A DNA stretch of 64,000 nucleotides from the IMG/VR virus record IMGVR_UViG_3300009514_000435, positions 2,497 to 66,496 of that record. One strand, 5' to 3'. Origin of the DNA: a virus. Positions within the stretch are counted from its first letter, which is position 1; each line of letters starts with the position of its first letter. Made by a program: the position numbers and the translations under genes. The notes below the pieces were generated by a model that did not search any database, had not been told where the DNA came from, and was given only the letters and a program-made list of their open reading frames with translations. Of the stretch, positions 6,063 to 21,651 are shown one piece after another.

Positions 6063-7236
6063 TGATTACTCCGTTAATTAATTCACAGATAAACTCAATA
6101 TCTTCTTTCGCCATCAACTGATGATTCGGAACATATAAACCGTACTTGTCTATCTTATTAGCAAAGGGTAAATATGTTTCATGTTTTAGTTTCCCTTTCA
6201 GGAAAGGTTGAAATTCCATTGAGCCACAAATCAAAGGTCTTACTTCTACATTGTTATCCACCAGTGCTTCGCTTATTTCGTTTGCCTTCGGGTGTATAAT
6301 GGGGTATGCGAAATTGGAAACAATATCAAAATCATAATCGTTTTTCTTTTTCCAATAATCATTTACAATCAATTTATCATATAATCGGAAATTAGCATCC
6401 CTAACCGCACAAGTCCTATTCAATTTAGTCATTTGTCTCAATCCAATATAAGCCTGTAGGTCTGTCGCTCTAAGGTTAAACCCTGCATAATAAAAAGAAT
6501 ACAATGATTTAAACTCTGAAATATTATGTTCAGTTCTTAACCGTTTCTGTTCGTCTGTATCCACATCCCGATCCCATCCATGACTTCTTATCATTTTAAG
6601 AACATTATAAAGTTCCTTATCATCAGTACAAACCATTCCACCTTCAATAGTAGACATATGATGTCCGAAATAAAAAGAAAAAGTGCTCATTAATCCAAAT
6701 GTGCCTGTTTTCTTTCCAACATAAGTCGAACCAACAGATTCGCATGAATCTTCTAAAACGGTAACACCATATTCATCACACATACTATGAATATCTATCA
6801 TTTCACAAGGGAACCCCAACACCTGTACTAATAGCAATGCTGATACATCTGGATGTTCTTTTAATATCTCTCCCAAACTACCTACACTTATACCCAAGGT
6901 TTCTTTGTCACTATCACACAGGATAGGTTCAAAACCTAATTGGATTAAGGGAGCCACAGTGGTAGCCCAAGATACCGCAGGAACTATTATTTTATTGCTT
7001 TTGAGTTTCCCAAGTAATTTGTAAGCATAGACCATTAATAAATTAGCCGAACTTCCTGAATTGACATAAACGGAATATTTACATCCTGTCCAATCAGACC
7101 ATTCTTGTTCAAACTTCTCTGTCTGTTTACCTTTTGTTAATCGGGGTTTTGTTTTTAGCCACTTTATTAGATGTTTAATGTCATTTTCATCAATAGTATC
7201 TTCAACCAACTTGATGGCTTTTCTTGTATTCTTCAA
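6046..7236 (-). CDS. colD: GDP-4-keto-6-deoxy-D-mannose 3-dehydratase (ColD-like, DegT/DnrJ family)
   Basis: VNSGSSANLL, IVPAVSWATT, LEDSCES, GTFGLMSTFSFYFGHHMSTIEGG (His in place of the Schiff-base Lys), IRSHGW. Confidence 0.8.
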   Translation of the reverse strand: MKNTRKAIKLVEDTIDENDIKHLIKWLKTKPRLTKGKQTEKFEQEWSDWTGCKYSVYVNSGSSANLLMVYAYKLLGKLKSNKIIVPAVSWATTVAPLIQLGFEPILCDSDKETLGISVGSLGEILKEHPDVSALLLVQVLGFPCEMIDIHSMCDEYGVTVLEDSCESVGSTYVGKKTGTFGLMSTFSFYFGHHMSTIEGGMVCTDDKELYNVLKMIRSHGWDRDVDTDEQKRLRTEHNISEFKSLYSFYYAGFNLRATDLQAYIGLRQMTKLNRTCAVRDANFRLYDKLIVNDYWKKKNDYDFDIVSNFAYPIIHPKANEISEALVDNNVEVRPLICGSMEFQPFLKGKLKHETYLPFANKIDKYGLYVPNHQLMAKEDIEFICELINGVINGSSS

Positions 7237-8137
7237 TTGTTTTCACCAACCCTGTTTCGATTTCAATTTTTGCTTTCCAACCTAAATTATTTATACGGCT
7301 CACATCTAAACATTTTTTCATCATACCATCTGGTTTTTCAGTATTGAATTTAAACTCACCATCATATCCAACTAAATATTTGATTAAATAAGCCAATTTC
7401 CTGATAGATAAATCTTCGCCTGTTCCTATATTTAAAAAAGTCTCACTTGATTTAACATTATTCATTGACCATATCATACCATCGATCAAATCGTCTATAT
7501 ACAGAAACTCCCTACTCTGATTTCCTGAACCCCAAACTTCGACTTCTTTTACACCATCCCTATGGGCATCACAAATCTTTTTCACTAATGCGGATAGAAC
7601 ATGACTTGTTTCTAAATCATAATGATCACCTTCTCCGTATAGGTTACAAGGCATAAGGGAAACGAAATCAGTATCAAATTCTTTATTCGCATACTCGCAC
7701 AACTTCAACCCTGCTATCTTAGCCAAAGCATACCCTTCATTAGTAGGCTCCAAAGGTGCTTCTAACAAATATTCCTCTTTCAATGGTTGTTTATAATCCT
7801 TCGGATAGATACAACTTGAGCCTAAAAAAAGAACCTTTTTCACTCCTGTCTTAACACAAGCGTTAATAATATTATTCTGCATTACCAGATTATCATGTAA
7901 GAATTTATAAGGATTATCCATATTAGCCTTAATACCCCCCACCACCGCAGAACAGACAAATACAAAGTCAAACCCATAACTTATTGCACCCATTGTGTTG
8001 TGTTGGTGTAAAAGATCTATTTCTTTTCTATCAAATGTATGGACATTAGTATATCCATCATCTTTCAGCTTCTTCAGTAAAACACCACCCACAAACCCAG
8101 TATGTCCTGTCACTAATATTGAACTATTCTTATACAT
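7202..8137 (-). CDS. fcl: GDP-L-fucose synthase / GDP-colitose synthase (Fcl/ColC family)
   Basis: VGGIKAN, FLGSSCIYPK, LEPTNEGYALAKIAG, MPCNLYG, WGSG..REFLY, KPDG. Confidence 0.9.
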   Translation of the reverse strand: MYKNSSILVTGHTGFVGGVLLKKLKDDGYTNVHTFDRKEIDLLHQHNTMGAISYGFDFVFVCSAVVGGIKANMDNPYKFLHDNLVMQNNIINACVKTGVKKVLFLGSSCIYPKDYKQPLKEEYLLEAPLEPTNEGYALAKIAGLKLCEYANKEFDTDFVSLMPCNLYGEGDHYDLETSHVLSALVKKICDAHRDGVKEVEVWGSGNQSREFLYIDDLIDGMIWSMNNVKSSETFLNIGTGEDLSIRKLAYLIKYLVGYDGEFKFNTEKPDGMMKKCLDVSRINNLGWKAKIEIETGLVKTIEEYKKSHQVG

Positions 8138-8138
8138 A

Positions 8139-8816
8139 TTAACCTACATATTTAAAAACACTATCAGGGTTACCATGAGTAATCAATTTATATCCTATAC
8201 ATAATAACATGTCATTGACTTCAGAAAAAGTAGAAGCGTTTTGAAAAAAATCAGTCACGCCATCTATCTCTACATTAATCAGTTTAGGTCTAATATCCCC
8301 AAAACCGCTTATGATTTCTTTAACAACACCTTCAACATCCATATGTAAAACATCTATTTCTGTGATATTATTCTCATTACAAAACCTCTCAATAGTAATA
8401 CATGGAACACTTATCGGTTTCTTTGAATATTTCAAATGTGTAAATTGGTTTTCAGCCTTTTTAGTCGCTTTCAATAATGAACCTGCTGGTGCTGAACTGG
8501 TAGTCACTTGAGTTCCATTATATTCGGGTCGTATACACTCATAATATTCGACTTCACCTACTTTTTTAAACACAGCATAATTAAAAATATTTATTCCATG
8601 TTTTTCTAAAGGTTTAATCTTATTGTAAATTGTAGGGTTTGCCTCAAAAGAATACACTTCAGCATCAGGGAAATTCCTTTTAAAGATAATACTATCACCA
8701 CAGTCAAAACATCCTACATCGAATATAACTTTCGGGTTCTTTCCCAGATGACTATGAATAACATCCGTTCCAATAGAACCCGAATAAAACTTATGGCCAT
8801 CTAATTCAAAATACAT
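8139..8816 (-). CDS. FkbM-family SAM methyltransferase
   Basis: FDVGC, YSFEANP, IDVLHMDVEG. Confidence 0.85.
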   Translation of the reverse strand: MYFELDGHKFYSGSIGTDVIHSHLGKNPKVIFDVGCFDCGDSIIFKRNFPDAEVYSFEANPTIYNKIKPLEKHGINIFNYAVFKKVGEVEYYECIRPEYNGTQVTTSSAPAGSLLKATKKAENQFTHLKYSKKPISVPCITIERFCNENNITEIDVLHMDVEGVVKEIISGFGDIRPKLINVEIDGVTDFFQNASTFSEVNDMLLCIGYKLITHGNPDSVFKYVG

Positions 8817-9655
8817 TATATTTTTCTCAATTTGGCTTTCACTGGAATTTCGCTATTTTCCACTTTAAGTTTACCATCACCCATACCCGCTTCAAATGCT
8901 TCAATGAAATCTCTAATTTTTAAAACCCCTGCGGTTTCAATTGAAGCAGATTGATCACTACCATACATAGTTCTATCTGTTGTAATATGATATTCAATCA
9001 TTTCAGCACCCATAACTTGAGCCTGAAGAATATAAGCAATACCAGACGAATGATTAGAAAACCCTATTGAGTGATGATCTTCAAATAACATCTGTAAAGT
9101 TTCGATCTTTTTCATATTCATTTCTTCTGGTGGAGTTGGGTAACTTGAAACACAAGATAGAATATACGCAGGATCTACATAATTTAAACATTTAAAAATT
9201 TCTTCTTCAGTACTCATACCCACAGCAACAACGACTTTCGTATAAGTATCTTCTACGGCTTTATCAATAGCTTCTAATAATTCAATATTAGTAACCATTG
9301 CGGAAGCAACTTTGATATACTCAGGTTTATATTGCATTAAAAAATCAACAGACTTCACATCCCAAGGAGAACCAAACCAACCAATACCTTTCTGTTTACA
9401 GTAAGCATCAATTTTATCAAATTGTTCTTTACCAAATTCCAGACCGTTTTTCTGTTCTCTATTTGTAGTTCCAAAAGGAGATTCTCTTGGAGCATCTAAT
9501 TCCTCTTTGGTATACACATCTTCAACAGTTCTTTTTTGAAATTTTACAAATTTACAACCACCAGAAATTGCCAAATCAATTAATTTTTTTGCTTGTTCAA
9601 GAGAACCATTATGGTTAATCCCTATCTCACCAACTAATATTGTTTTCATTTTCAA
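8816..9655 (-). CDS. neuB: NeuB-family nonulosonic acid synthase (short form, no C-terminal AFL/SAF domain)
   Basis: EIGINHNGS, VKFQKR, KVAS, SSYPT, GFSNHS, IEYHIT.DR...GSDQSAS. Confidence 0.9.
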   Translation of the reverse strand: MKMKTILVGEIGINHNGSLEQAKKLIDLAISGGCKFVKFQKRTVEDVYTKEELDAPRESPFGTTNREQKNGLEFGKEQFDKIDAYCKQKGIGWFGSPWDVKSVDFLMQYKPEYIKVASAMVTNIELLEAIDKAVEDTYTKVVVAVGMSTEEEIFKCLNYVDPAYILSCVSSYPTPPEEMNMKKIETLQMLFEDHHSIGFSNHSSGIAYILQAQVMGAEMIEYHITTDRTMYGSDQSASIETAGVLKIRDFIEAFEAGMGDGKLKVENSEIPVKAKLRKI

Positions 9656-10332
9656 TTCTCCTTATACCTTATTAAATATTTATTAAATAAATCTGAATGT
9701 TTTTCAATTATTTTATCATCCCATTCTTTAAAATCTATTCCAGAATTAATCGAATGATAACGCAAATGTTCCCCTTTAGTGGAACTACCCTTTTGAGTGT
9801 TTAAATCATATGATTCAACAGATATCTTTTTATAGAAATCGTATTTATCCATAAAAAAATTTAAGTTTTTTTCTTTTAAGTTTAAAAACTTTACACATTT
9901 CAATAATTCTTTTTTTGGATTCATGATTAAATCTTCATAGTAAATTAATAGTTTTTTATCTCTAGGCCATTTGTGATATTCATTAATGTTTTCCATATAA
10001 TTATAAGGAGATTTATTTTGTCCTAAAATTACATCATTGTAATCTTGTTTCTGTTTAATAACGCATTCCTTATAATTTCTCAATAATAAAATAAGTTTTG
10101 ACTTATTGTAAACATCCTTATTAGTAGCAACCTTGCCATATATACGATCTTTTTCATATAAAGAATGTTCTTTTCTCAATATATAGTCACCAGAAACATT
10201 GATATGTTTTCTTATTTCTTTTATATAATCATTATCAGGATATGTTGGTCTATGAGAAATGTTTTCTATACAAAACCTCAACCAACTGTTTGCACATCTA
10301 GGGTAGGATAACAATATACAACATTTGTTCAT
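9652..10332 (-). CDS. PAPS-dependent sulfotransferase
   Basis: 5'-PSB loop SYPRCANSWL, LLRNYKE, YYEDL. Confidence 0.75.
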   Translation of the reverse strand: MNKCCILLSYPRCANSWLRFCIENISHRPTYPDNDYIKEIRKHINVSGDYILRKEHSLYEKDRIYGKVATNKDVYNKSKLILLLRNYKECVIKQKQDYNDVILGQNKSPYNYMENINEYHKWPRDKKLLIYYEDLIMNPKKELLKCVKFLNLKEKNLNFFMDKYDFYKKISVESYDLNTQKGSSTKGEHLRYHSINSGIDFKEWDDKIIEKHSDLFNKYLIRYKEN

Positions 10333-10661
10333 TCTACTTTTCCACTTTCTTCGGTACGGTATGAATCTTCTTCCATATGTGTTGTGGATATTTCGTAAAT
10401 CACACTATCTTCTAAGCCTGTAAACCTGTGTTTAGTATTTGGAAATATACGAACCTGTTCACCTTCAGACATTTCAAAGGAACCAATATCTTCAGTTTCC
10501 ATTTTAACTTTACCTGAATGTAAAATAAACGTTTCATCTTTTATTTTATGAGAATGCATACTACACCTGTATCCCTTATTCAAGTGTAGTTTTTTAAAAC
10601 AATATAATTCATTGTTTACAATCCATTCTTCTTTACCCCAAACCTTTTCAACTATTTCCAT
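10329..10661 (-). CDS. Cupin, mannose-6-phosphate isomerase-like
   Basis: KVWGKEEWIVN, SMHSHKIKDETF, HRF, EIST. Confidence 0.8.
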   Translation of the reverse strand: MEIVEKVWGKEEWIVNNELYCFKKLHLNKGYRCSMHSHKIKDETFILHSGKVKMETEDIGSFEMSEGEQVRIFPNTKHRFTGLEDSVIYEISTTHMEEDSYRTEESGKVE

Positions 10662-11316
10662 CTTTTAATTCATCCCCTAATACTTTATTTATTTGTTTTT
10701 CAAAAAGTGTAGACAAGTGATTATTGTAAAAATGAACTCTATGTAAAATATGCTTTTCATATTCTTCTCTAAATTGTTCTTTTTTACTATCATAATTTTC
10801 AGATATATTTATTATCTTTTTATCATATGTAGTTCTCGATTTAATAAATTCTTTAGATACTTTTCCTATTTTATCAAATCTCTCTTTATCAAAAACCTCG
10901 CCAAAATGATTACATATCTTAGAAAACTCTTCATGTGGAGTTTCTAGCATATTTTCATATGTTATGATCGTTTTTTTCTTTGTAAAATCTTCATTATACA
11001 TCCATTTTAATATGTTATCACAATATTGTTTTATTAATCCATCAATCTTATTCATATTTTTCAAATCAAATTTATAATAACACATTGATGAATAGATAAC
11101 ATCAAATGGATTTCTGTATAAATAAATAACATCATATAGTTTATAACTTAAATCCATATCATGTACATGATTACATTTAAAATATTTTGCATTTCTAAAT
11201 TGAAATTCGTTTTTATCTTTATTTTTAAAATAAATCTCAATTAAAGACCTAATCCAATGGCTCCCACACCTTGGAAAACTTACAAGGTGTGGATAATTCG
11301 GATCATCTATTTTCAT
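10648..11316 (-). CDS. PAPS-dependent sulfotransferase
   Basis: SFPRCGSHWIR, YLYRNPFDVIYS, ITYENM. Confidence 0.78.
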   Translation of the reverse strand: MKIDDPNYPHLVSFPRCGSHWIRSLIEIYFKNKDKNEFQFRNAKYFKCNHVHDMDLSYKLYDVIYLYRNPFDVIYSSMCYYKFDLKNMNKIDGLIKQYCDNILKWMYNEDFTKKKTIITYENMLETPHEEFSKICNHFGEVFDKERFDKIGKVSKEFIKSRTTYDKKIINISENYDSKKEQFREEYEKHILHRVHFYNNHLSTLFEKQINKVLGDELKDGNS

Positions 11317-11318
11317 TT

Positions 11319-11618
11319 CTATTCTCCAATATGGTGCATATCAAAAGCATGAACAGCTTTATCATCAATTATCATATCATAAAAAGGTTTACCTAATTCC
11401 AAGCTATCATACTTACATCCCCATTTATTTAGTTGTTCAACAGTCAAGGCAGTCCAATCTATTTTCGTTGTTGTACCTCTAGCTGTCCAATAGATTATAT
11501 GATGACCTTCATCATATAAAGAATTTATCTTGTCGATATTATTTTGAATAGGTTCCGCTTCTTCGTATTTATCGCCCGTATTACAAATAGTTCCATCAAT
11601 GTCAACTCTTATTATCAT
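11319..11618 (-). CDS. Small capless HAD-family phosphatase
   Basis: VDIDGTIC, WTARG, GKP.YD..IDDKA. Confidence 0.85.
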   Translation of the reverse strand: MIIRVDIDGTICNTGDKYEEAEPIQNNIDKINSLYDEGHHIIYWTARGTTTKIDWTALTVEQLNKWGCKYDSLELGKPFYDMIIDDKAVHAFDMHHIGE

Positions 11619-13303
11619 TCAGACATCTCCAATATTTTTTCAATGTTATCTGTATCAATATGTTCTCTTGCTTGTAAGAAATTATCCATAGACATGGCTC
11701 CAAAATTCAAAGGCACTCCATCTTTATTGTGCAGAACCTTAGTGGCATCGTCCAACTCTAAAACATAAGCATGGAAGGATTCATTACATACTGGTTCACC
11801 ATTTGGTTCATAAGTGATATTAAAATTCTTGGTTAGCATTTCTCTGGAAATAGGGTCTTTGAACATGGCCGTCCCTGGGTAAGCGGTAACGGTAAACATC
11901 TTTCGATTTACACTATCAAAAGCCTGTTTATATTCAGGTGTTCCCTTCATCAGACCTTCTGTCATAAACTGTTGTTGCCAAACTATGAAAGCTACACTGG
12001 TTTTCAGGTCAGCCAATGTTTCTTTCGGGTAACTCATAATCCAAGTACAGTTCGCATGGATACCGACATCCCTACAATTCCTAATCCCGTTAAACATTGT
12101 AGTTGGAAATTGGTATGTGTTTCCGTTCACCTTTGTCGGTGTGTATCCGTTCTTTAAAATAAAACCACCTTTGTTCATTCTAGTCAGGGTGTTTTTAGAA
12201 GCCGATTCCGCCCCAAATCCAATGTAGATACAACCAGATTTAGACATGGCCTTCACTCTTTCATCAGCTTCATCTAATCTAGTATGGGTTCCCCACCTGA
12301 TCGAATCTCTGTCAAAACCATAATCGGAGAATACTTCTACCATCTTATTTATCCTTGGAACACTTACCGCAAAATTATCATCTGGAAACCCGATAAAATC
12401 CACTTTATATCTGTCCACATAATCTCTCATTTGCTTGGCAATGTGTTCAGGCGACCTAATACCGTAATTCCTTTCCCCCTGTGCTCCCCTATAACAGAAA
12501 GCACAAGCATAAGGACATCCCCTACTGCTCACTGTGGTCAAACTTCTATCCATTGTGAAAGAAGTACAAGAACTATTATTAGCCTTCCCTCCCCACACTG
12601 GTATTGAAATATAATCTTCAAGTACATTGTGACCATACGGATCTGACTCTAATAAATCCCACGAAGCATATGGAAGGGTGTCTAGGTTTTTGGGTCTACT
12701 TCCACCGTAAATAAATCTTTCCTTTCCAAGATACTCCCCTATTCTATAGGGACTAAGTTTGCTTGACAATTTCGCTAAATGTTTATCTTCTTCTTTAAGC
12801 ACCATAGCATCTTTGGCAATCGAGATTATGACATCATCACCTTCGGAATGAGCAACACCATCTAATTCAGGAATCCAGTTAAACAAACCCTTTTTAATCT
12901 CAGTAGCCAGACCACCACCAGTTACCAAAAATGCCCTTGGTTGATGGGCCTTTACAATTTCAGCAACATTTTCTTGCCATCTTAAAGTCGTTATCATACC
13001 CGAAAAGGCAATTAAATCTTGATCCCCTTTCTGGTTAATATGTTTCATGAACATTTCTTCGGCTTCTGCAAAAGAAATAAGTCGGTAACCACCTTCAGGT
13101 TTCGGAAACCTATAACCGTTCAAATCTATAATATGAACAGTGGCTCCGTATCTTCTCAAAATTGAAGCTAGAATTGCTGGCCCTTCTGGTGGAGTATTTG
13201 GCATAGCCGATTCTCTCAAAGGCATATTGATAAAGGTCACATTTAGACCTCTAAATTCGTTTATACCGATTTCGCCATTTAACTCTGATGGATGTTTTAC
13301 CAA
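11615..13303 (-). CDS. Cobalamin-binding radical SAM enzyme (class B methyltransferase-like)
   Basis: N-terminal B12-binding-type region; SRGCPYACAFC; FPDDNF; IGFGAESAS. Confidence 0.85.
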   Translation of the reverse strand: MVKHPSELNGEIGINEFRGLNVTFINMPLRESAMPNTPPEGPAILASILRRYGATVHIIDLNGYRFPKPEGGYRLISFAEAEEMFMKHINQKGDQDLIAFSGMITTLRWQENVAEIVKAHQPRAFLVTGGGLATEIKKGLFNWIPELDGVAHSEGDDVIISIAKDAMVLKEEDKHLAKLSSKLSPYRIGEYLGKERFIYGGSRPKNLDTLPYASWDLLESDPYGHNVLEDYISIPVWGGKANNSSCTSFTMDRSLTTVSSRGCPYACAFCYRGAQGERNYGIRSPEHIAKQMRDYVDRYKVDFIGFPDDNFAVSVPRINKMVEVFSDYGFDRDSIRWGTHTRLDEADERVKAMSKSGCIYIGFGAESASKNTLTRMNKGGFILKNGYTPTKVNGNTYQFPTTMFNGIRNCRDVGIHANCTWIMSYPKETLADLKTSVAFIVWQQQFMTEGLMKGTPEYKQAFDSVNRKMFTVTAYPGTAMFKDPISREMLTKNFNITYEPNGEPVCNESFHAYVLELDDATKVLHNKDGVPLNFGAMSMDNFLQAREHIDTDNIEKILEMSE

Positions 13304-14121
13304 ACCGTTTTCCCTCCATCTATAATCATATTTTCGCCTGTCATGTATGAACTAGCTTCAGAAGCTAAGAACATGATAGCACCCTTGTATTCGTCTTTAT
13401 GGGCCATTCTACCCATAGGTATGATATTAGTCAGCTTTTCCACAAAGTCCTCTGGTTGGTGATTAAAAATGCCTGTAGGACTCAAACAATTGACTCTTAT
13501 ATTCTTTTGAGCATAATACACCGCCAGATACTTTGTCATACCGATTACTGCCCATTTTCCTGCCGAATATGTGATAGGTTTCACATTCTGTTGTTCATCG
13601 GGAACACCCTCTTTTCGATAAATTCTCTGGTCAGGAGCAATAACCCCCAAATCAGAAGAAATGTTGATAACCACACCACCGCCCGTTTTTAACATTTCAT
13701 TGCAAACTACTTGAGACACCAAAAAAGTTCCATTAATAATGGCATCTGTTCCTTCTTTCCAATATTCTTCTGTCATGGTTTCAAATCGGGCTTCATTTAG
13801 CAACCCGCCATCTGCCTTAACCTTTGGGTCTTTTCCCGCATTGTTAATCAGAATATCTATAGGTTCTATCCCCCTAATCCTTGATACCACTTCTTGTATA
13901 GAATTTTTATCAGTAACATCCATGTGTAAAGCTCTTACACAAGTGTAACCGTACTTTTCATTAAGGCTTTTTGCATTAGCCTGTGCTCTATCCAAATGAT
14001 GATCAACCAGATGAACTTCCCCACCCTGCTCAATAATAGCTTCTGCGTGTTTGGGTGCTAGAAATCCCCCGCCACCTGTAATTAAAGCGGTCTTTCCTGT
14101 TAAATCAAAAATATTTTTCAT
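13297..14121 (-). CDS. SDR oxidoreductase (PtmA-like, nonulosonate-locus type)
   Basis: TGGGGFLA, INNAG, SSDLGVIAPDQRIY, YSAGK, IRVNCLSP, SYMTG..IIDGG..W. Confidence 0.85.
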   Translation of the reverse strand: MKNIFDLTGKTALITGGGGFLAPKHAEAIIEQGGEVHLVDHHLDRAQANAKSLNEKYGYTCVRALHMDVTDKNSIQEVVSRIRGIEPIDILINNAGKDPKVKADGGLLNEARFETMTEEYWKEGTDAIINGTFLVSQVVCNEMLKTGGGVVINISSDLGVIAPDQRIYRKEGVPDEQQNVKPITYSAGKWAVIGMTKYLAVYYAQKNIRVNCLSPTGIFNHQPEDFVEKLTNIIPMGRMAHKDEYKGAIMFLASEASSYMTGENMIIDGGKTVW

Positions 14122-14912
14122 TTCAAGTTTTCTCCAAAATGTTTATCGTGTAGTTCTTCAACAAATATCTTATCGGTTACTGCTCTTTCATATTCATACC
14201 CCGTATAGGATCTGCTCGTTTGTAATGTCCAAAGACCATCATATGCTCTTTCACCTAAAGCCTGAAATATTTCCTCAAATGGAGTATCCCCCGTTCCTAA
14301 AGGTACATTTTGTAAAGATTTACTGTCCTTATCCTTAATGTGAACATTGTCTATCCTATCGTGGAAGGCTTCAATAAAATCAGTATGGTCTATCCCTGCC
14401 ACATTGGTATTCCCTGTATCATAAGTGACTTTAGCATGGGGCAATTTATCTAAAACCTCTTTTAGATGTTCAATGGTACAGTCGGTTTCTATGCTAAATG
14501 TTATACCATTCTGCATGATACTATAATATTCACAATCTTGTAATATTTTAATAAAATGTGCTCTTTTTCCATCATCATCAATATTAGATTCCTCTAGTAT
14601 AGGGAAGGTTATTCTATGAATGTCGTGTGAAATTACTTTCGGTAATACTTTGTATAAAATATGCTGAACCTGTTGATATGAAGCACCTGTAATATTATCC
14701 AAACCCACCGAACTTATTCTCAAGTCAGATAAATCACAATAGAAAAAAGGATTACTTCGGAAATAATTATTGTTAATTATCCACTCGAAATGTTCAAACC
14801 CCAAACTTTCCATTAATGGGATTTCTTTCTCCCATTCAACAAAAGGAAACTCCTGAATCAAGCCATTAATAGGCTTTAATAATCTACCTTGAAGTATGCC
14901 TAAATTTTTCAT
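14118..14912 (-). CDS. Sugar phosphate isomerase/epimerase (xylose-isomerase-like TIM barrel)
   Basis: GILQGRL, IETD, YDTGN, VHIKD, VPLGTGD, LQT. Confidence 0.8.
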   Translation of the reverse strand: MKNLGILQGRLLKPINGLIQEFPFVEWEKEIPLMESLGFEHFEWIINNNYFRSNPFFYCDLSDLRISSVGLDNITGASYQQVQHILYKVLPKVISHDIHRITFPILEESNIDDDGKRAHFIKILQDCEYYSIMQNGITFSIETDCTIEHLKEVLDKLPHAKVTYDTGNTNVAGIDHTDFIEAFHDRIDNVHIKDKDSKSLQNVPLGTGDTPFEEIFQALGERAYDGLWTLQTSRSYTGYEYERAVTDKIFVEELHDKHFGENLK

Positions 14913-15553
14913 TTTGTTGCCGTTCCTAAAACCATTAATTCAATCGACCACCGTATAAACTCATTTTCAAACCTTTTCAAATTAGGCTTTAAAAATATCC
15001 TTAGTATCTTACTGAATATTTCAAGATATTTATATTTCCAAATTACAGGCAGTTGAGTGAATAACTCTACCTGCACATTTTTAAAACCATGTATCTTCAA
15101 CAAATCATTCATTGAAGTTATAGTGTAAGGTTGAACATGAGTATAATCTTCATAAAAAACATTCTGTTGGGTTATCCAATCGGGAACCAGTATTATCAAT
15201 CGGCCACCCTTCTTTAAAACTCTTTTACATTCGCTTAAAAAGTGTTCTGGTTTGTGGATGTGTTCTATTACCGATTTAGAAAACACTACATTAAAACTAT
15301 TATTCGGATAAGGGAAATCACTAGTTTCTAAGTCCTTTATTCTTCTGGTATACTTCCAAAATTTCTCTCTATCAATTCCTTGAACATGAAATCCCTTTTT
15401 CTTAAAAGCATCAGCAAAAACGCCTGAACCACATCCCACATCCAAAAATTTTTGATTATGTTTGAGATTATATTTCTTCATAATGTGTTCACAAAATTTA
15501 TCTGGATAGGTCGTTGGTTTTCTTTCCCCATATACCGTTTTTAAGTAGCTCAT
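14909..15553 (-). CDS. Class I SAM-dependent methyltransferase
   Basis: LDVGCGSG, FSKSVIEH, RVLKKGG, DYTH. Confidence 0.88.
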   Translation of the reverse strand: MSYLKTVYGERKPTTYPDKFCEHIMKKYNLKHNQKFLDVGCGSGVFADAFKKKGFHVQGIDREKFWKYTRRIKDLETSDFPYPNNSFNVVFSKSVIEHIHKPEHFLSECKRVLKKGGRLIILVPDWITQQNVFYEDYTHVQPYTITSMNDLLKIHGFKNVQVELFTQLPVIWKYKYLEIFSKILRIFLKPNLKRFENEFIRWSIELMVLGTATK

Positions 15554-15927
15554 AATTTTTCCACCAATTCTAAAATAAAACCAAGGGGATCGGCCATAAA
15601 AGCAACTTTATGTTTTTTATCTTCAGAAAGCATAGGATGAACTAAAAAACGCTGTAACCCTAATTTCATAACAACTTCATTCAAATTCTCTACTTGTAAA
15701 GCAACATGACAATCAGAGGGTGTATGGTTCTCCCTATCTTCACCTACAAATTCCAAAACTTCTCCGTTTGGTGTTTTCATTTTAATCACATCAATAATTC
15801 CAAAGAAAGGCCATTTTTCTACTTTACCATAAAAAACCTCAAAACCCAATTTCTTATAAAATTCTACTTCCATTCGCATGTCTTTTTTGTTGAGATAAAA
15901 TCCAGTATGTCTAATTCGTGTTATCAT
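15550..15927 (-). CDS. VOC/glyoxalase-family protein
   Basis: IRHTG, FY..LGF, LE, HVALQV, F.ADP.G..LELVE. Confidence 0.8.
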   Translation of the reverse strand: MITRIRHTGFYLNKKDMRMEVEFYKKLGFEVFYGKVEKWPFFGIIDVIKMKTPNGEVLEFVGEDRENHTPSDCHVALQVENLNEVVMKLGLQRFLVHPMLSEDKKHKVAFMADPLGFILELVEKL

Positions 15928-17095
15928 TTATTTCCCTTTTTAATATCTCCAAACCTTTCTTCAAATGATATTCTGTGATCGTTAAAGGTGGAGCCAACTT
16001 AATAGACTCTATTCCAGTATGAACCACTAGCAACCCGCTTTCCATGCACGAATGACATACCTTAGAAGCCAGTTCTTTATCTTTAAAAACAATACCTGCG
16101 ACTAAACCTTTAACATTAATCTCTGTAATGTGTTCTCTGTATGTGTGAAATATCTCTGTTATGTTGAAAATAAAAATAAACTCCTTATTTTTTAATTCCC
16201 GTTTATCCAGTTTTTCCAACTCATTTAAAACCGCCAATCCAGAAGCACAACACAAAGGGTTAGCTGAATGGGTACTACTCATATCACCGACTTCTGGAAT
16301 ATCCATGATTTCCTTTCGACCCAACACACTAGATAAAGGTAACCCTCCCCCAATAGCTTTCCCTATACACACTAGATCAGGGGTAACCTGATAATGTTGA
16401 TAGCCGAACAATTTTCCTGTTCTCCAAAACCCTGCCTGTATATCATCAAAAGTCACACAAGCTCCAATAGCATGAGCATAAGCACACAAATCTTGTACAT
16501 AGTTTTTAGGTAAGAATTTAGCAGACCACCCTTGGTATGTTTCAATCATAAAACCCGCAACCAAACTAGGTTCAACATTCAGCTTTTTCATTTCCCCAAA
16601 AAAGTTTGAGTTTTCTGTAGGAAAAGGTAAATTCAAAAAATCTTCATGTTCATAGAATCCAGTACCCTTCATCAAATCAGCACACATTGTTCTACCATGC
16701 ATTGCCCCTTTAAAGGATATTATTTTCTTTCTCCCTGTTTTCATTCTCATTAATCTCACTGCTGTTTCTGTCGCTTCGGTTCCTGATGAAAGAAGGAAGG
16801 CTTTCTCACAAAAAGGTGGAGTTATCTCTATCAACTTTTTAAGAAACTGTAATCTCAATTTGTGTGGGTATGTGTAAGAGTGTAACAACTGTTTATCCAA
16901 TGCTTTCTTTATAGCCACCCTCACTTTCTTATTAGCATGGCCGACATTCATCACAAATATGGTAGAAGTAAAATCAATATACTTCTTTCCTTTCATATCT
17001 GTTACAATGTCATTCTTAGCACACTTCCATTCCACAGGCAACATTGAGTGCATAGACTTTGGTTCTAATTCTTTTAGTTTCTCCTGTATGCTCAT
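15911..17095 (-). CDS. Class III PLP aminotransferase
   Basis: D.KGKKYIDF, VGH, SGTEATE, HGRT, FDDIQAGFWRTG, GKAIGGG, PPL. Confidence 0.9.
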   Translation of the reverse strand: MSIQEKLKELEPKSMHSMLPVEWKCAKNDIVTDMKGKKYIDFTSTIFVMNVGHANKKVRVAIKKALDKQLLHSYTYPHKLRLQFLKKLIEITPPFCEKAFLLSSGTEATETAVRLMRMKTGRKKIISFKGAMHGRTMCADLMKGTGFYEHEDFLNLPFPTENSNFFGEMKKLNVEPSLVAGFMIETYQGWSAKFLPKNYVQDLCAYAHAIGACVTFDDIQAGFWRTGKLFGYQHYQVTPDLVCIGKAIGGGLPLSSVLGRKEIMDIPEVGDMSSTHSANPLCCASGLAVLNELEKLDKRELKNKEFIFIFNITEIFHTYREHITEINVKGLVAGIVFKDKELASKVCHSCMESGLLVVHTGIESIKLAPPLTITEYHLKKGLEILKREINDNTN

Positions 17096-17799
17096 TTTTT
17101 AGTCACCAAATACTGTAAATAATCAAATTCTTCTTGGCTATCTATCTCAATAGCTTTCTCTGTCTTGTAGCCCAATACTTTGTCACCATAAGTTGTTTTG
17201 GTTTCTATGATATTACGAACAGTCACAATATCAATATAACCGTTTGGGGCATAGCATTTCTTAAACTGTTCTTTCGGAATATTAGCATTTTCATTATCAT
17301 TACCCATGTACGGTTCGATGTAAACACTAGGCAAATCACATAACATTTTCATCCTATACATCTTTTCTGGTGGCTCTGGTAAAACATGAAAAGACCTTAA
17401 CGAATGATGAGCACCGTCAACCAAATATTTAAAAAACATCTCAAGAGCACTGTTTAAAACATGAGTTTTTCTCAAGGGAGTAGTGGGCCTTAGTAATACA
17501 ATTATATCATCAATATCCATCTTCAATGTATAGATAGCGTGTAACAAATAATCAATATCTTTTGCTTTGTCTGTACAACAAAAAGGCGGTCTTAATAACG
17601 TCTCTACTTTAGATGAAACAGACTTCGCTATATCACAATATTCCACTTTATCGGTGGTCACAATAACCTTGCCTATGTGTAAACATTCTAAAGCGGATTC
17701 TATCGAATATTGCAAGACAGGCTTACCGCCTAGCAACCTAATATTCTTGTCTTTTACACTCTTAGACCCACTTCTAGCAGGGATTATACCGTAAATCAC
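17092..17799 (-). CDS. neuA: CMP-nonulosonate synthetase (acylneuraminate cytidylyltransferase)
   Basis: IIPARSGSKSVKDKNI, GKP, LRPTTPLR, NGYIDI, EIDS..EF. Confidence 0.9.
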   Translation of the reverse strand: MIYGIIPARSGSKSVKDKNIRLLGGKPVLQYSIESALECLHIGKVIVTTDKVEYCDIAKSVSSKVETLLRPPFCCTDKAKDIDYLLHAIYTLKMDIDDIIVLLRPTTPLRKTHVLNSALEMFFKYLVDGAHHSLRSFHVLPEPPEKMYRMKMLCDLPSVYIEPYMGNDNENANIPKEQFKKCYAPNGYIDIVTVRNIIETKTTYGDKVLGYKTEKAIEIDSQEEFDYLQYLVTKK

Positions 17800-18524
17800 A
17801 GTTTCATTTCTCCTTTTTCTAGTTCATCAAAAAACGCTCTCTTGTTCAGATTTATTATCCTTTGGTTTTTCATTTTAGCTGATTCGTTTATTACTTTTAA
17901 ATCTTTTAAAATACGTTCAAGATAATTATTCAGTTCCCCTTTACTGGGTATTCTAAGTTTAGCTTTACTTTCAGCATACCCTTGTGTATAATCTAAATCC
18001 AATCCTGTCACATATATCGGGTCACATCCCAACAAAACAGCAAATGCTAACATATGTACTGAAACGGTATCCCCTGAACCATAATGTTCTTTAAAAGAAG
18101 AATATCTCTGTAATTCTTCTTGAATGGTAAGTCTTTCTAAAATACGACCACAACACCTTACTCCACTCCCACAATCTTTTTGTAAAAAATGTCTTTGATC
18201 GTAAGGCAAAAAATCACAAGTGATATGTTCATCTATCCAACGTCTGGGTGTTAAATCTACCGAATCGGCATAAACAATTGTAGTGTTCCACCGATTAACT
18301 CTAGAACAATTCTTCAACATAGTTTCTATATTATTTGCATACACCACATAATCTGGTATGATATTATGAAAATTATCCCAATCATTACAGTCAATTAACA
18401 CCACATTTTTCTGTCGGTATTCTTCCATTTTAGGCAAATGTGTATTCAGACTAGGGCCATGAGCTATAACTAGACAAGGGTGGTTCTTATGAGAACCTTC
18501 AATATCAGAAAAACTTAATTTCAT
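17796..18524 (-). CDS. Maf/DUF115-like (CstII-like) CMP-nonulosonate transferase
   Basis: LVIAHGPSL, CN, PDY, GDTV...LAFAVLLGCDPIYVTGLDL; adjacent to neuA. Confidence 0.7.
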   Translation of the reverse strand: MKLSFSDIEGSHKNHPCLVIAHGPSLNTHLPKMEEYRQKNVVLIDCNDWDNFHNIIPDYVVYANNIETMLKNCSRVNRWNTTIVYADSVDLTPRRWIDEHITCDFLPYDQRHFLQKDCGSGVRCCGRILERLTIQEELQRYSSFKEHYGSGDTVSVHMLAFAVLLGCDPIYVTGLDLDYTQGYAESKAKLRIPSKGELNNYLERILKDLKVINESAKMKNQRIINLNKRAFFDELEKGEMKL

Positions 18525-19327
18525 AATTCTATAAGATTGTAATCTTTTTCAAAAGTAGCATTATCATTTTTGATTTTATAAAAATCATTTTTGTCTATAA
18601 CATACCCTTGTAAAAATTTACTGTTTAGTTCTTCTAAAGAGAAGTCTTTATTATTAGAATGTCTATTATATCCCGTTTGGGTAAGGTTATTTGCTATATT
18701 GATTGTTTTAGAATTTTCCAGACAAAGCATATAGTGTTTAAAATTTACCCTATTTAAATTTAACACCCCTTCCATATCATTAACATTTCCACCTTGAATC
18801 TTATACATCTGTTCCATCAGGAATCCAGTTCTATAAATGTGGGAATTAATACAAGCAGGATAATACCAATCAGTTCGACCATCACCCTTTGTCCAATCCC
18901 ATTTATACACTTCACCTTTTTTTTCTAGTTCTGGAATATCACATTTTAAATCTGCCGTATAACAATAATCACCAATGTTCTTTCCCATTCTCAATGAAGC
19001 ACAGTGTATTTCTTCTGTGTAATTATCCAACAAAGGTTTAACGGAATCCTTTCTAATTACAATTTCATCATCAACCATTGTCATAATATATTCAGTCTTA
19101 GAAAAGTTTATTTCACTTCTAATATCTTCGATTAAATTACTTTCTGGAACCCAACTAAATTGAGGATATTTCCCGAACAACTTCATATATCCATCCATAT
19201 ATTTTTCTGTAGTTGTCTTACAAACAATAGTAACCCGATTAGCTTCACTGAAATTATCAATGATACTAGTCAGAAGCAAATCTAACTGACAAGCCCTATC
19301 TTTTGAAAATATCAATATATCAATCAT
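18521..19327 (-). CDS. Putative GT-A glycosyltransferase
   Basis: IFSKDRACQLDLLL, MVDD (DxD-like), SLRMG; operon context. Confidence 0.6.
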   Translation of the reverse strand: MIDILIFSKDRACQLDLLLTSIIDNFSEANRVTIVCKTTTEKYMDGYMKLFGKYPQFSWVPESNLIEDIRSEINFSKTEYIMTMVDDEIVIRKDSVKPLLDNYTEEIHCASLRMGKNIGDYCYTADLKCDIPELEKKGEVYKWDWTKGDGRTDWYYPACINSHIYRTGFLMEQMYKIQGGNVNDMEGVLNLNRVNFKHYMLCLENSKTINIANNLTQTGYNRHSNNKDFSLEELNSKFLQGYVIDKNDFYKIKNDNATFEKDYNLIEL

Positions 19328-20135
19328 TGTCTAATATCCCTCTCAATTCTTCAATGCTTCCAATATTGTTTTCCTTAATCCATTCAAAGGCTTTTTCAGT
19401 CATAGATTCAAATTCATCTTTAGTCATGTTCACCAGATGTTCTTCTAGTGCAGAATCAGATGGAAATTTTCTATAATCCACATACAGTTCTGGGGGTATT
19501 CTTTCTTCGATGTTATAGCAACCATAATAAACAGGAACAGTTTTCGCCTTAAAGCAATCTGTAATCTTCTCTGTCACATAATCCCAACTCCATAATTCAT
19601 GGTAAGCATTTTCAAAACACAAGTTAAACTTATACTCATTCAATTTCTTCAATTTAGCCAGACTAGACGGGTAAGTTTCCTTTTCTTCAGATCCGATAAC
19701 CCCCTTGTAATGTTCTTCCAGATAGGGGATTTTCCCATAGGTGTGTTTTGTCAGTTTCTTAAAACTTTCAAACACCTCAATTCTTTTTCCAACCAAATCA
19801 AAATCAACGACCTTTTGGGAAAATCTACATATCAAACAGATACCATTTATCCTATCTTCAAACGGGATAAAAGTTTCCAAGTTACTATAATTATCGAACA
19901 AGGGGAAATTGGGTAACAGGATAGATTCGATATCCATATTCTGGTATTCTTTGTGGAGCTTACTGTTCCAAGTATAAACTTTCTTGTACTGCTTCACATT
20001 TTCCATGTAATAGTTACTAGGTATGATATTGGCTGTTTCTAGTTGAAGTAAAGAGGTTTCTTTGCTTCTTCTATCTGGGGTATCCTGAAAACAAATCTTA
20101 GGATATTCTACAACGGTTTTAAGATATTCTGACAT
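19320..20135 (-). CDS. GT10 alpha-1,3/4-fucosyltransferase-like (possible colitosyltransferase)
   Basis: YKFNLCFEN....DYVTEKI.DCF.AKTVPVYYG GT10 signature. Confidence 0.85.
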   Translation of the reverse strand: MSEYLKTVVEYPKICFQDTPDRRSKETSLLQLETANIIPSNYYMENVKQYKKVYTWNSKLHKEYQNMDIESILLPNFPLFDNYSNLETFIPFEDRINGICLICRFSQKVVDFDLVGKRIEVFESFKKLTKHTYGKIPYLEEHYKGVIGSEEKETYPSSLAKLKKLNEYKFNLCFENAYHELWSWDYVTEKITDCFKAKTVPVYYGCYNIEERIPPELYVDYRKFPSDSALEEHLVNMTKDEFESMTEKAFEWIKENNIGSIEELRGILDND

Positions 20136-20887
20136 TATAATTCCTTATAAGTTTCTCTATTTCGGCTAATATTCGCACACACTTCCGATTTCTGCCAGTT
20201 GACTTTAAACTCATTCAAATCGGTTTCAACATTATAAACATAATTAACATCATCGGTAAATTTACTGTGGGTATCTCCTGCCATTTCTAACATAGGCCAC
20301 ATAAAAGCCAAGTCGCCTGCCATTGGAATAAAATCTCCATTATCATCTTTCAGATGTTCAACTTTGATTTTACGAAATAGCCAAGCCTTCCAAGTTCTCA
20401 TATGAGTAGTGGTGTATGATTTGGTTTGTCTTTGCCCCGCTATACCAGTTATTGGAGGTTTAGCAAAACCGTTTTTGTATTTACCCTCGCCTTCAAAATA
20501 AACGAATTGGCCATAAGTAATCCAAGTCTTTTTATCTTCGTAATAACTTTCAATTCTGGTCAAAGTTTCTTCGTCTGGTAACCAATCATCGCCATCCAGT
20601 GTAATACAAATATCTTCATTATCTATTTCAGGCCTGTCCATCACCTGTTTATAATTACCCGTCTGCCATTGTTTCTCTGTATTCTCTATGATTTCAAATC
20701 TATCATCATTCTGTATGTTTTCTCTAGCCACCTGTATAGAAGAATCTGTAGGCAAATCTGCGGTAATATAACACTTCCAGTTTTTGTTGTTCTGGTTCTT
20801 TAAACTCTGGATAGTCATTCCAATATACCGTTCCGAATTATAAAGAGTGGTAAGGATTCTAATCATCTTTCTAATTCCTTCATCCAT
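20135..20887 (-). CDS. GT2-family glycosyltransferase
   Basis: YNSERYI...IQSL.NQ, LDGDDWL, HMRTWKA, D.AFMWPMLEMAG. Confidence 0.85.
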   Translation of the reverse strand: MDEGIRKMIRILTTLYNSERYIGMTIQSLKNQNNKNWKCYITADLPTDSSIQVARENIQNDDRFEIIENTEKQWQTGNYKQVMDRPEIDNEDICITLDGDDWLPDEETLTRIESYYEDKKTWITYGQFVYFEGEGKYKNGFAKPPITGIAGQRQTKSYTTTHMRTWKAWLFRKIKVEHLKDDNGDFIPMAGDLAFMWPMLEMAGDTHSKFTDDVNYVYNVETDLNEFKVNWQKSEVCANISRNRETYKEL

Positions 20888-21651
20888 GAATCGAATATTT
20901 CATCATTGGATAGGTTCAACTCAAAGTTATCTTTAATGGCTTCTGTACCATGAAAATTCACACCTGTCATTTCACACTCTTTTGGAATGTAACTCCAAGT
21001 CTCACTCACAGAAGAAAGGTAAACATCTGATACCTGTTCATACATTTCTTGCTTATTATCAATGTGTCCTCTATGAACAAATCTATTAGGAAAGGCTCTG
21101 ACTATCTGGTTGAAATAAACTTGGTCTGAAATGTTACCAAATAAATATATCTGTTTCATTCCATCTTCTATAGCTCTTTTCACTGAAATATATGTCTGCT
21201 TATTTCTATCAACCGAACCAATTATACCTGCCACTTTGTCAGGTTTACTGGTAATTGGCTTTAGTTCATCTATCACATTTGGTAGAATAAAAGAAGGATG
21301 ATCCACTTCATGCCATTCTTTTTGTGGTCTTGATACAAAATGAATTTTATCATAAATATGGTATATAAAACTTTTAATAGGTCTTACATCCTTTTCATGG
21401 CAAGAATATATTAACTTGCCTTTTATTGGGGGTTTGGAATCCCAGTTTGGGTTCCAAAAGTGGAGAATTAAATCATCTGATTCTTCTAAATTTAAATCCG
21501 AAATTAAGCCCGATTTACACTTATCTAAATGCCAAGAATGAGCACCATAAAAAGTACAGTCTACATTCTTGGAGTTAAATAAATTTGTTAGGTTTAAGAA
21601 AGCGACTGTGGAGCCACCACAATTTGACCAACCAGATACAATTTTAATCAT
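20863..21651 (-). CDS. GT-B (GT4-like) glycosyltransferase
   Basis: GGST, HE, FVS..Q, PN, IGSVDRNK, S.SETW...KEC...G. Confidence 0.7.
   Translation of the reverse strand: MIKIVSGWSNCGGSTVAFLNLTNLFNSKNVDCTFYGAHSWHLDKCKSGLISDLNLEESDDLILHFWNPNWDSKPPIKGKLIYSCHEKDVRPIKSFIYHIYDKIHFVSRPQKEWHEVDHPSFILPNVIDELKPITSKPDKVAGIIGSVDRNKQTYISVKRAIEDGMKQIYLFGNISDQVYFNQIVRAFPNRFVHRGHIDNKQEMYEQVSDVYLSSVSETWSYIPKECEMTGVNFHGTEAIKDNFELNLSNDEIFDSWMKELER

Follow-up and report, generated by a model that had tools for sequence, protein, structure and literature searches.

What kind of sugar would a phage build with a sialic acid synthase, a CMP-sugar synthetase and a cobalamin-type radical S-adenosylmethionine (SAM) enzyme encoded side by side? 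This question is raised by a 64-kb stretch of DNA (hereafter the window), which covers positions 2,497 to 66,496 of the 66.5-kb IMG/VR virus record IMGVR_UViG_3300009514_000435 and is numbered here from its own first letter. At positions 8816–18524 of the window, thirteen minus-strand open reading frames (ORFs), the ends of which overlap or abut, encode a NeuB-family synthase, a cytidylyltransferase, a radical SAM protein and a set of putative sugar-tailoring enzymes. We propose that this block is the core of a phage pathway to a cytidine monophosphate (CMP)-activated, tailored 3-deoxy-2-ulosonic (sialic-like) acid, synthesized via a sugar-phosphate rather than a nucleotide-sugar route, and assign a probability of roughly 0.6 to this proposal. 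The sugar-phosphate route is favoured because an isomerase, a NeuB, a phosphatase and a cytidylyltransferase together follow the logic of the pathways for Kdo (3-deoxy-manno-octulosonic acid) and Kdn (deaminoneuraminic acid). We infer the starting sugar, the radical reaction, the product and the acceptor: on our best reading the product is oxidised and aminated, and it is probably C-methylated and here perhaps sulfated. The specific reaction of the radical SAM enzyme and the acceptor of the sugar are less certain than the general pathway.

Gene content of the block

A preliminary description of the window, made from its letters alone, had named eleven enzyme types in the block, and Pfam and NCBIfam models recovered all of them on the minus strand of 8816–18524. 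Support for the individual gene calls is uneven: it is strongest for the class III aminotransferase (E 1e-73), whereas the cupin and the VOC protein are marginal. Two sulfotransferase-like ORFs (9652–10332 and 10648–11316) had been overlooked.

Four genes would supply the activated ulosonic acid. The synthase (8816–9655, 279 aa) is a NeuB-family protein without a SAF domain (Pfam NeuB E 4e-56, residues 25–261). The small cupin (10329–10661, 110 aa; Cupin_2 28.3 bits) is a candidate aldose-ketose isomerase, as it matches the C-terminal domain of phosphomannose isomerase (PMI) at 25 bits (cut-off 23.6) and Lyx_isomer at 23.2 bits, with HxH...E...H residues visible. A capless HAD phosphatase of only 99 aa (11319–11618) was detected weakly by Pfam (E 1.5e-3) and firmly by phrog_1238 (E 4.6e-31), and matches TIGR01689 and the BT0820 family weakly in NCBIfam. 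The catalytic motifs of HAD enzymes are DxDxT, S/T, K and DD, and the stretches VDIDGT, WTARGT, LGKP and IIDDK of the product can be read as these four motifs (DxDGT, T, K and DD). The putative CMP-sugar-acid synthetase (17092–17799, 235 aa; CTP_transf_3 E 2.2e-18) reaches 80 bits on the PseF model of NCBIfam (cut-off 205.7) and 26–36 bits on KdsB models.

The remaining genes appear to tailor or transfer the sugar. The radical SAM protein with an N-terminal cobalamin-type domain (11615–13303, 562 aa; Radical_SAM E 1.5e-15) is followed in coordinate order by a classical SDR oxidoreductase (13297–14121, 274 aa; adh_short_C2 E 4e-39), the best NCBIfam model of which is PRK09186 (161.5 bits, cut-off 255), presumably a model of PtmA type. 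Next to it lies a xylose-isomerase-like TIM barrel of epimerase, isomerase or dehydratase type (14118–14912, 264 aa; AP_endonuc_2 E 4.6e-16) with weak matches to ketose 3-epimerases, UlaE and a keto-glucal hydratase, and then a class I SAM methyltransferase (14909–15553, 214 aa; Methyltransf_23 E 2.7e-20). The putative VOC (glyoxalase-fold) protein (15550–15927, 125 aa) falls below the Pfam cut-off (Glyoxalase E 5e-3), and is 31% identical to homologues in two related viral loci (L084 and L088), which themselves belong to the glyoxalase family at E 6e-20 and 3e-18. The class III (omega-type) aminotransferase (15911–17095, 394 aa; Aminotran_3 E 9.5e-74) is nearest, at E 1e-47 and weaker, to solved structures of GABA (gamma-aminobutyrate), acetylornithine, putrescine and ornithine aminotransferases, enzymes that each work on the terminal amine of an acid.

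The first sulfotransferase-like protein (9652–10332, 226 aa) is a marginal match to Sulfotransfer_1 (E 2.2e-5, 24.4 bits, cut-off 22) with an N-terminal P-R-x-x-x-S-W loop, and its relatives in L002 and L115 share 28–31% identity. The second (10648–11316, 222 aa) matches Sulfotransfer_1 at E 1.7e-10 (41.1 bits, same cut-off) and Sulfotransfer_3 at E 8e-7, has weak Protein Data Bank (PDB) matches to cytosolic sulfotransferases (E 0.002), and contains the stretches FPRCGSHW and RNPFD. The P-R-x-G/A-S-x-W loop seen in both proteins and the R-N-P-x-D of the second are, we assume, loops of the kind that binds 3'-phosphoadenosine-5'-phosphosulfate. The last gene encodes a stand-alone MptE-like (Maf/WaaZ-type) protein (17796–18524, 242 aa; PF01973 57.8 bits, cut-off 34.6), a candidate ulosonic-acid transferase with 106 relatives of ~240 aa; a 190-kb contig encodes an MptE-like protein 61% identical to it. 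No PDB sequence matched it at E 0.1; in the Atlas, its model has WaaZ_KDO_III and Maf clusters among its neighbours, which we take as a lead only.

The synthase is set apart from Neu, Leg and Pse synthases

The window NeuB scored 194.5 bits on TIGR03569, the NeuB/LegI equivalog (cut-off 399.65), and 127.8 bits on the PseI model TIGR03586 (cut-off 340.25). No domain was detected beyond residues 25–261, and the match spans positions 2–278 of the 329 in the profile. The best PDB match, 6ncs (E 5.5e-31), is itself a short NeuB of 290 aa, and alignments showed the 'S.HS.G' and 'E.H' stretches, which presumably hold the metal-binding His residues, to be identical in the window protein, 6ncs and 8h2c. 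According to a published survey, SAF-less NeuBs cluster together and come from environmental bacteria, with no function, pathway or product assigned in the accessible part of that source (PMC8208679).

The preliminary description had proposed a phylogeny of NeuB against the known clades, and we constructed a tree of 52 distinct proteins from the radical SAM-bearing loci described below, a locus of Azospirillum thermophilum and four reference plasmid loci, in which all loci L001–L113 with a tblastn alignment of at least 200 residues were represented. The 42 NeuBs of radical SAM loci, including those of the window and its sister phage L002 as well as the short Azospirillum NeuB, formed one clade (SH-aLRT 100) that excluded two PseI, two LegI-context and one NeuB/NeuC-context references; these are the only five references in the tree, none of them a proven Kdn-9-phosphate synthase. 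We then held the window and L002 sequences together with the five references, the grouping that the preliminary description had set against its own proposal; the approximately unbiased (AU) test, run after the tree had been seen and with two long-branch rows left out, rejected this arrangement (p 0.00012, lnL difference 57). The window NeuB thus does not group with PseI, LegI or NeuB references in either analysis.

The early steps of the canonical routes were missing as well. The preliminary description had recognised no NeuC, Pse/Leg-type hydrolase or acetyltransferase, and indeed none of the 49 window ORFs scanned by Pfam matched such a family, nor did reference proteins match the window by tblastn. 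Eight references (three NeuC/LegG, two PseG, one PseH and two Leg-type acetyltransferases) gave no match in the window and 63 related loci, 1.16 Mb in total. With the synthase outside the references, and with neither a hydrolase nor an acetyltransferase step found in the window or its relatives, the earlier call of a non-canonical pathway is borne out.

The module recurs in phages and bacterial genomes

An alignment of 25 radical SAM proteins retrieved relatives from 26 viral contigs and 80 genome loci. Thirty-seven of the genome loci (L003–L039), mostly metagenome-assembled genomes (MAGs) of Patescibacteria, are 37–62% identical in the radical SAM protein, and these MAG loci, together with a like module in A. 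thermophilum, answer the suggestion that the same gene block be sought in bacteria. The cassette is therefore a widespread module and not unique to the window phage. A few of the MAG loci may nevertheless be phage, since L030, a 65.6-kb contig in a Sphingomonadales MAG bin, is the same sequence as the viral contig L106, with an identical cytidylyltransferase and equal length. At E 1e-20 no orthologue of the radical SAM protein was found among 50,697 phage records and 72,556 plasmids, which leaves no isolated phage or plasmid as a model of this enzyme.

Co-occurrence was counted with local profiles against 3,774 ORFs of the window and the 63 loci (27 viral, including the window, and 37 MAG loci); the counts are lower bounds, as many loci end at a contig edge and the profiles overlooked at least one cytidylyltransferase, that of L090, which Pfam confirms. 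NeuB joins the radical SAM gene in 25 of 27 viral and 24 of 37 MAG loci, a CTP_transf_3 gene in 23 and 26, and an SDR gene in 15 and 27, respectively. The small HAD is confined to viral loci (19/27 against 0/37) and a larger HAD to MAG loci (0/27 against 23/37). Likewise, cupins were detected in 12 viral loci, often between NeuB and the HAD, and in three MAG loci; SIS isomerases in none and nine; and TIM barrels in two and 17. VOC genes occur in 5/27 viral loci, each time with a class III aminotransferase. No partner keeps closer to the radical SAM gene than the cytidylyltransferase: the two lie no more than 150 bp apart in 29 of the 49 loci with a cytidylyltransferase, against 5/49 for NeuB.

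The MAG proteins resemble enzymes of sugar-phosphate routes. Their SIS protein reached 187–197 bits on the GmhA model (cut-off 209) in two loci, and the HAD of L010 scored 60.8 bits on the KdsC and 54.9 bits on the KDN-9-P phosphatase model, both below cut-off. The combination of synthase, phosphatase and cytidylyltransferase, from which the preliminary description had argued for the logic of the KDN-9-phosphate route, thus recurs together with an isomerase, and in MAGs with a KdsC/KDN-9-P-phosphatase-like HAD and a GmhA-like isomerase.

Pfam annotation of 138 ORFs in eight of ten selected viral loci revealed a recurring order of radical SAM, cytidylyltransferase, aminotransferase, SDR, NeuB, cupin and small HAD genes. 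The slot after the cytidylyltransferase is occupied by a class III enzyme with VOC (L084, L088), a class IV enzyme (L089, L091, L095) or a DegT protein (L090), so that the amination step is conserved through unrelated enzymes. Because the same slot keeps an aminotransferase while the family changes, amination looks integral to these cassettes.

The closest relative is the sister phage L002, in which the radical SAM protein is 78% identical and synteny extends across the whole island; L002 lacks counterparts of the FkbM and the second sulfotransferase genes, and its one sulfotransferase-like gene is placed elsewhere. Only the window and L002 combine the TIM barrel with the pair of class III aminotransferase and VOC protein. 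Particular to the window are this set (shared with L002), the two sulfotransferase-like genes within the cassette and the adjoining dideoxyhexose branch described below. Sulfotransferase-family genes lie beside other cassettes, in L091 (8629–9992, where a pair of Sulfotransfer_2 genes adjoins the radical SAM gene on its upstream side), L115 (10154–10690) and L002 (3473–4198), and judging from these annotations sulfation may be a common accessory decoration. One related viral locus, L099, carries a second, different B12-binding radical SAM gene (13869–15863, 664 aa) two genes downstream of NeuB.

The best plasmid match of the window NeuB (43% identity) was found on a plasmid of A. thermophilum CFH 70021. 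The plasmid carries a complete legionaminic-type (Leg) cluster, in which genes for LegB, LegC and NeuC stand together with those for a full-length NeuB, an SDR, amidotransferases, and one each of acetyl-, nucleotidyl- and cytidylyltransferase. Adjoining it is a second module with a short NeuB, a HAD, three SDRs, a TIM barrel, methyltransferases, a B12-type radical SAM protein and a cytidylyltransferase, of which the short NeuB, one SDR and the cytidylyltransferase are 43%, 42% and 35% identical to their window counterparts. The Azospirillum radical SAM protein is a distant paralogue (26% identity over 89 residues). A Leg cluster beside the second module indicates that the two kinds of pathway coexist as separate units.

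The radical SAM enzyme and a proposed pathway

The three cysteines of the CxxxCxxC motif in the radical SAM protein (C263, C267 and C270) are invariant in 25 sequences, and residues 65–127 of the methylase TokK, in its B12 domain, are matched by the family profile (E 1e-7). The best NCBIfam models are ApyD (67.8 bits, cut-off 750) and the PhpK family (63.2 bits, cut-off 600). The family is remarkably well conserved: in a large protein collection, the best 120 of 945 matches were 60–100% identical to the window protein; among these 120, PF02310 was precomputed in four, and the near-length matches were all 536–586 aa. Among the longer proteins, one relative of 11615–13303 (P0227, 1269 aa) carries intein splicing and LAGLIDADG domains, and it is the only such case. 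The G+C content is 0.395 at 12001–14000, over the radical SAM gene, against 0.29–0.35 in the rest of the island.

From these gene families the following route can be proposed. The cupin isomerase would provide an aldose phosphate. The one hint of mannose 6-phosphate is the marginal likeness of the cupin to PMI, and the GmhA-like isomerases of the MAG relatives give a hint of a heptose phosphate (heptose-7-P). The SAF-less NeuB would condense the aldose phosphate with phosphoenolpyruvate (PEP), the 99-aa HAD would take off the terminal phosphate, and the cytidylyltransferase would convert the product to a CMP-sugar. The cobalamin-type radical SAM enzyme would then modify an unactivated carbon; with Fom3 and GenK as analogues, the likeliest reaction is C-methylation of the terminal CH2OH that the phosphatase would have freed. 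Subsequently, the SDR would oxidise an alcohol, the VOC protein and/or the TIM barrel would epimerise next to the ketone, and the omega-type aminotransferase would add an amine. Further groups could be added by the class I methyltransferase and the two sulfotransferase-like proteins, before the MptE-like protein moved the sugar onto its acceptor. That a terminal CH2OH is C-methylated on the CMP-sugar, oxidised and aminated is suggested because Fom3 and GenK-GenQ-GenB1 set precedents and because the aminotransferase is nearest to terminal-amine enzymes. In its most specific form, in which the radical SAM enzyme methylates the terminal carbinol of a CMP-ulosonic acid and so lengthens its carbon skeleton, the SDR and the omega-aminotransferase convert the secondary alcohol thus formed to an amine, and an O-methylated, sulfated amino-ulosonic acid of at least ten carbons coats the virion, the scheme is unlikely to be correct. 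'Higher-carbon' (ten-carbon) CMP-ulosonic acids have been detected in Magnetospirillum by mass spectrometry, with no genes assigned to them in that preprint (bioRxiv 10.64898/2026.04.20.719630), and a pathway of the cassette type could be their source.

Several observations speak against the proposed pathway. The B12-binding domain (PF02310) of the radical SAM protein scored 31.3 bits, just under the Pfam cut-off of 32.1, and no curated radical SAM subfamily was approached. The family profile likewise picks up AprD4 (E 5e-6), a diol dehydratase that does not methylate, and the NCBIfam model rSAM_AprD4 gave 25 bits. No fusion of radical SAM and cytidylyltransferase was found among the best 120 near-length matches or the longer proteins, and there is therefore no Rosetta-stone support for a link between the two. 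TIM barrels are absent from 25/27 viral loci and aminotransferases from 30/37 MAG loci, and therefore the products differ between lineages. A Kyanoviridae record contains SDR, DegT, NeuB and HAD genes and no radical SAM gene within 15 kb on each side, indicating that some versions of the cassette do without this enzyme. The cytidylyltransferase tree (51 rows, the best-scoring gene of 150–330 aa per locus) left the cassette members in several deep groups, unresolved against three references, and so speaks neither for nor against a separate clade. The window HAD had no match to KdsC or KDN-9-P phosphatase models at E 0.001, and the likeness of the cupin to PMI is marginal. The order of the steps and the carbon attacked are purely conjectural. 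Finally, the record covers only an estimated ~15% of the phage genome.

The resemblance to AprD4 and the sub-threshold B12 domain lead to an alternative, in which the sugar-phosphate pathway is the same and the radical SAM enzyme, with or without cobalamin, catalyzes a deoxygenation or dehydration, an epimerisation or a rearrangement of the carbon skeleton in place of C-methylation. Separate class I methyltransferases are already present, and cobalamin-dependent radical SAM enzymes also perform ring contractions and rearrangements, according to a review (PMC8992657). Nevertheless, the top NCBIfam matches are mostly methylases (ApyD, PhpK, Sden_1168 and KedN5), all far below cut-off, and the B12 domain matched is that of TokK. 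The pairing with a cytidylyltransferase and the oxidation/amination pair also fit the precedents of Fom3 and GenK. On balance we regard a non-methylating enzyme as somewhat unlikely and retain C-methylation as the likeliest reaction.

The phage, its glycan array and the acceptor

The window carries, by Pfam, a gp23-type major capsid protein, a T4-type large terminase, a tail sheath protein, gp15, and gp25-type and other baseplate proteins; by PHROGs, it also encodes a tail tube protein (3589–4122), a RegA-type translational repressor (2828–3223) and a baseplate wedge protein (28674–31106). The capsid protein is less than 60% identical to its counterparts in all 2,591 matching GenBank phage records (best listed, 32–38%), GenBank phages contained no DNA nearly identical to the window, and the completeness of the record was estimated at 15%. 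From the capsid divergence and the incomplete record it follows that the window is a fragment of an uncultured, distant T4-like phage. Every large ORF of the window except one lies on the minus strand.

The block belongs to a longer array running from 22274 to 4147, in which ORFs overlap or abut (no gap exceeds 78 bp). This glycan operon of about 17.5 kb is flanked by tail-tube and baseplate genes, and directly upstream of it, at 22285–22292 on the minus strand, is the motif TATAAATA, which we take to be the T4 late promoter word. The motif occurs 29 times in the window against 10.6 expected; 25 of these sites lie on the coding strand, most of them a short way upstream of structural genes (further sites are, e.g., 24941–24948, 27575–27582, 31130–31137 and 62928–62935). 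The array is thus apparently late-transcribed. Neither sigma-70 promoters (104 against 88.7 in shuffles) nor terminators (10 against 8.2) exceeded shuffled sequences at 3400–22600.

The most likely acceptor is a virion protein glycosylated in the cytoplasm, because transcription appears to be of the late type among tail genes and no export genes accompany the array. Alternatively, the CMP-linked product might serve the host surface (lipopolysaccharide, capsule, flagellin or pili) or a modification of DNA or small molecules. Maf-type enzymes act on flagellins and WaaZ on lipopolysaccharide cores, and the neighbours of the MptE-like model, which are leads only, are of these two types; furthermore, phage glycosyltransferases are reported to hypermodify DNA (bioRxiv 10.1101/2023.12.21.572611). 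We consider such uses quite unlikely, as the array sits among tail genes behind a T4-late-type motif, Pfam detected no flippase, polymerase, ligase or lipid-carrier priming transferase in the array, and no DNA-modification gene was found among the 49 window ORFs. The Ser/Thr content of the neighbouring structural proteins gave nothing decisive as to the acceptor.

Besides the block, the array contains four or five other glycosyltransferase-like genes and a 6-deoxyhexose branch. Its upstream part (18521–21651, minus strand) encodes a GT-A-like protein (18521–19327, a label that is an Atlas lead), a GT10 fucosyltransferase-type protein (Pfam E 1.3e-15), a GT2 protein (E 2.7e-16) and one unknown protein. 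The downstream part (4147–8816, minus strand) encodes, by Pfam and NCBIfam, an extended SDR, a glycosyltransferase, a DegT protein, an Fcl-like epimerase/reductase and an FkbM methyltransferase. The DegT and Fcl-like pair spans 6046–8137; the best curated model of the former is RfbH (206 bits) and the latter reached 359.5 bits on Fcl, both below cut-off. In the alignment, the DegT protein has His at the position of the pyridoxal phosphate (PLP)-binding lysine in both the window and L002, while all five reference sugar aminotransferases have Lys. We take this substitution to mark ColD/E1 3-dehydrases. Taken together with the Fcl-like neighbour and the GT10 gene, the His residue makes these genes look like a candidate colitose-type 3,6-dideoxyhexose branch with O-methylation by FkbM. 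The DegT and SDR genes were also considered as a supply of Leg/Pse precursors, and this was rejected on account of the His-for-Lys change and the Fcl-like neighbour.

It is very improbable that the block belongs to an ordinary Leg, Pse or Neu pathway, with the early genes in the unsampled genome or supplied by the host and the extra enzymes decorating a known nonulosonate: although the 66.5 kb recorded are an estimated 15% of the phage genome, the best curated model of the synthase is still NeuB_NnaB, that of the SDR is presumably of PtmA type, and an extended SDR and a DegT protein are encoded 1.6–4.7 kb downstream, (i) the NeuB scores far under the cut-offs of both equivalogs and falls outside the five references, (ii) no NeuC/LegG, PseG, PseH or LegH homologue was found in the window and 63 loci, (iii) the His-for-Lys DegT beside an Fcl-like gene points to a dideoxyhexose branch, (iv) the cassette conserves a phosphatase and an isomerase, which are useless in the canonical routes, and (v) the like module of Azospirillum adjoins a complete Leg cluster with its own full-length NeuB.

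Outside the array, two adjacent ORFs (51321–54305 and 54315–58310) encode giant proteins of 994 and 1331 aa. In both, a lectin-type domain (Laminin_G_3) is joined to a gp25 baseplate-wedge domain at the C-terminus, and this duplicated fusion is unusual. An ORF with an I-TevI-type DNA-binding domain (45138–45848), probably a homing endonuclease, lies between the large terminase and tail sheath genes. The sole sizeable plus-strand gene (32113–33111) encodes a Fibrobacter succinogenes major domain (E 1.7e-27), which may point to the host group or to a role in surface binding.

Significance

Sialic-like sugars stand at the outer tips of surface glycans and govern recognition by phages, lectins and immune systems. 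To our knowledge, all described routes to them add decorations with ordinary enzymes; a B12-type radical enzyme is not known from these pathways, and searches of open-access papers aimed at this cassette found no description of a module of NeuB and a B12 radical SAM enzyme, nor of a phage-encoded one. If our proposal is true, a B12-type radical SAM enzyme wired into a sialic-like route would represent a new class of sugar chemistry, and radical SAM enzymology would gain a large family from the cassette, which is spread over at least 27 uncultured phage contigs and 37 related MAG loci, mostly of Patescibacteria, with a like form in a cultured Azospirillum. Virions would then carry self-made, highly charged sugars, here possibly sulfated, with a bearing on host range, on the stickiness of particles in the sea and on dependence on host cobalamin. 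The plasmid of A. thermophilum offers a cultured entry point to this system.

Comparison with known systems

The environmental group of SAF-less NeuBs (PMC8208679) resembles the window synthase in comprising short proteins without SAF that cluster together; the accessible part of that survey makes no mention of radical SAM partners, viruses or phages. The CMP-Leg pathway with Ptm tailoring of Campylobacter and Plesiomonas, as described in PMC4481668, shares with the window a NeuB-family synthase, a CMP-synthetase, a PtmA-like SDR and a (here candidate) Maf-type transferase, and its tailoring takes place at the level of the CMP-sugar, as we propose for the window. It differs in that no LegB/C/H/G set serves the window synthase, which falls outside the LegI-context references.

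A closer parallel to the core is the Kdn pathway, which leads from mannose 6-phosphate to CMP-Kdn (PMC6200933). As proposed for the window, a sugar phosphate is there the substrate of a NeuB-family synthase, a capless HAD comes next, a CTP_transf_3 enzyme activates the product and no nucleotide-sugar hydrolase is involved. The window HAD, however, is a 99-aa protein of another subfamily that the KDN-9-P and KdsC models do not match, and the Kdn pathway has no counterparts of the eight tailoring genes of the window, i.e., those for the radical SAM protein, SDR, TIM barrel, VOC protein, aminotransferase, methyltransferase and two sulfotransferase-like proteins. The Kdo pathway (KdsD-KdsA-KdsC-KdsB) and the formation of Kdo8N in Shewanella, in which KdnB and KdnA oxidise and transaminate the terminal alcohol of the finished ulosonic acid, follow the same logic of isomerase, PEP condensation, phosphatase and CMP activation. 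In the window, in contrast, the synthase is of the NeuB and not the KdsA type, the putative oxidase is an SDR and not an iron alcohol dehydrogenase, and a radical SAM enzyme is added.

For the radical step, the parallels lie in antibiotic biosynthesis. In the fosfomycin pathway, Fom3 methylates the carbinol carbon of CMP-linked 2-hydroxyethylphosphonate (PMC8158854), and there, as in the window, a cobalamin-type radical SAM enzyme is coupled to a cytidylyltransferase, namely a domain of Fom1. Unlike the fosfomycin cluster, the window has no phosphonate genes, the likeness is at the superfamily level, and the substrate here would be a sugar acid. In gentamicin biosynthesis, GenK, GenQ and GenB1 C-methylate, oxidise and aminate C-6' (PMC4039129). 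GenQ is a flavoenzyme where the window has an SDR, and the gentamicin scaffold is an aminoglycoside. At the family level at which the two systems are compared, they would nevertheless share radical SAM C-methylation of a terminal CH2OH, oxidation of the alcohol and PLP-dependent amination, the sequence of reactions that we propose for the window.

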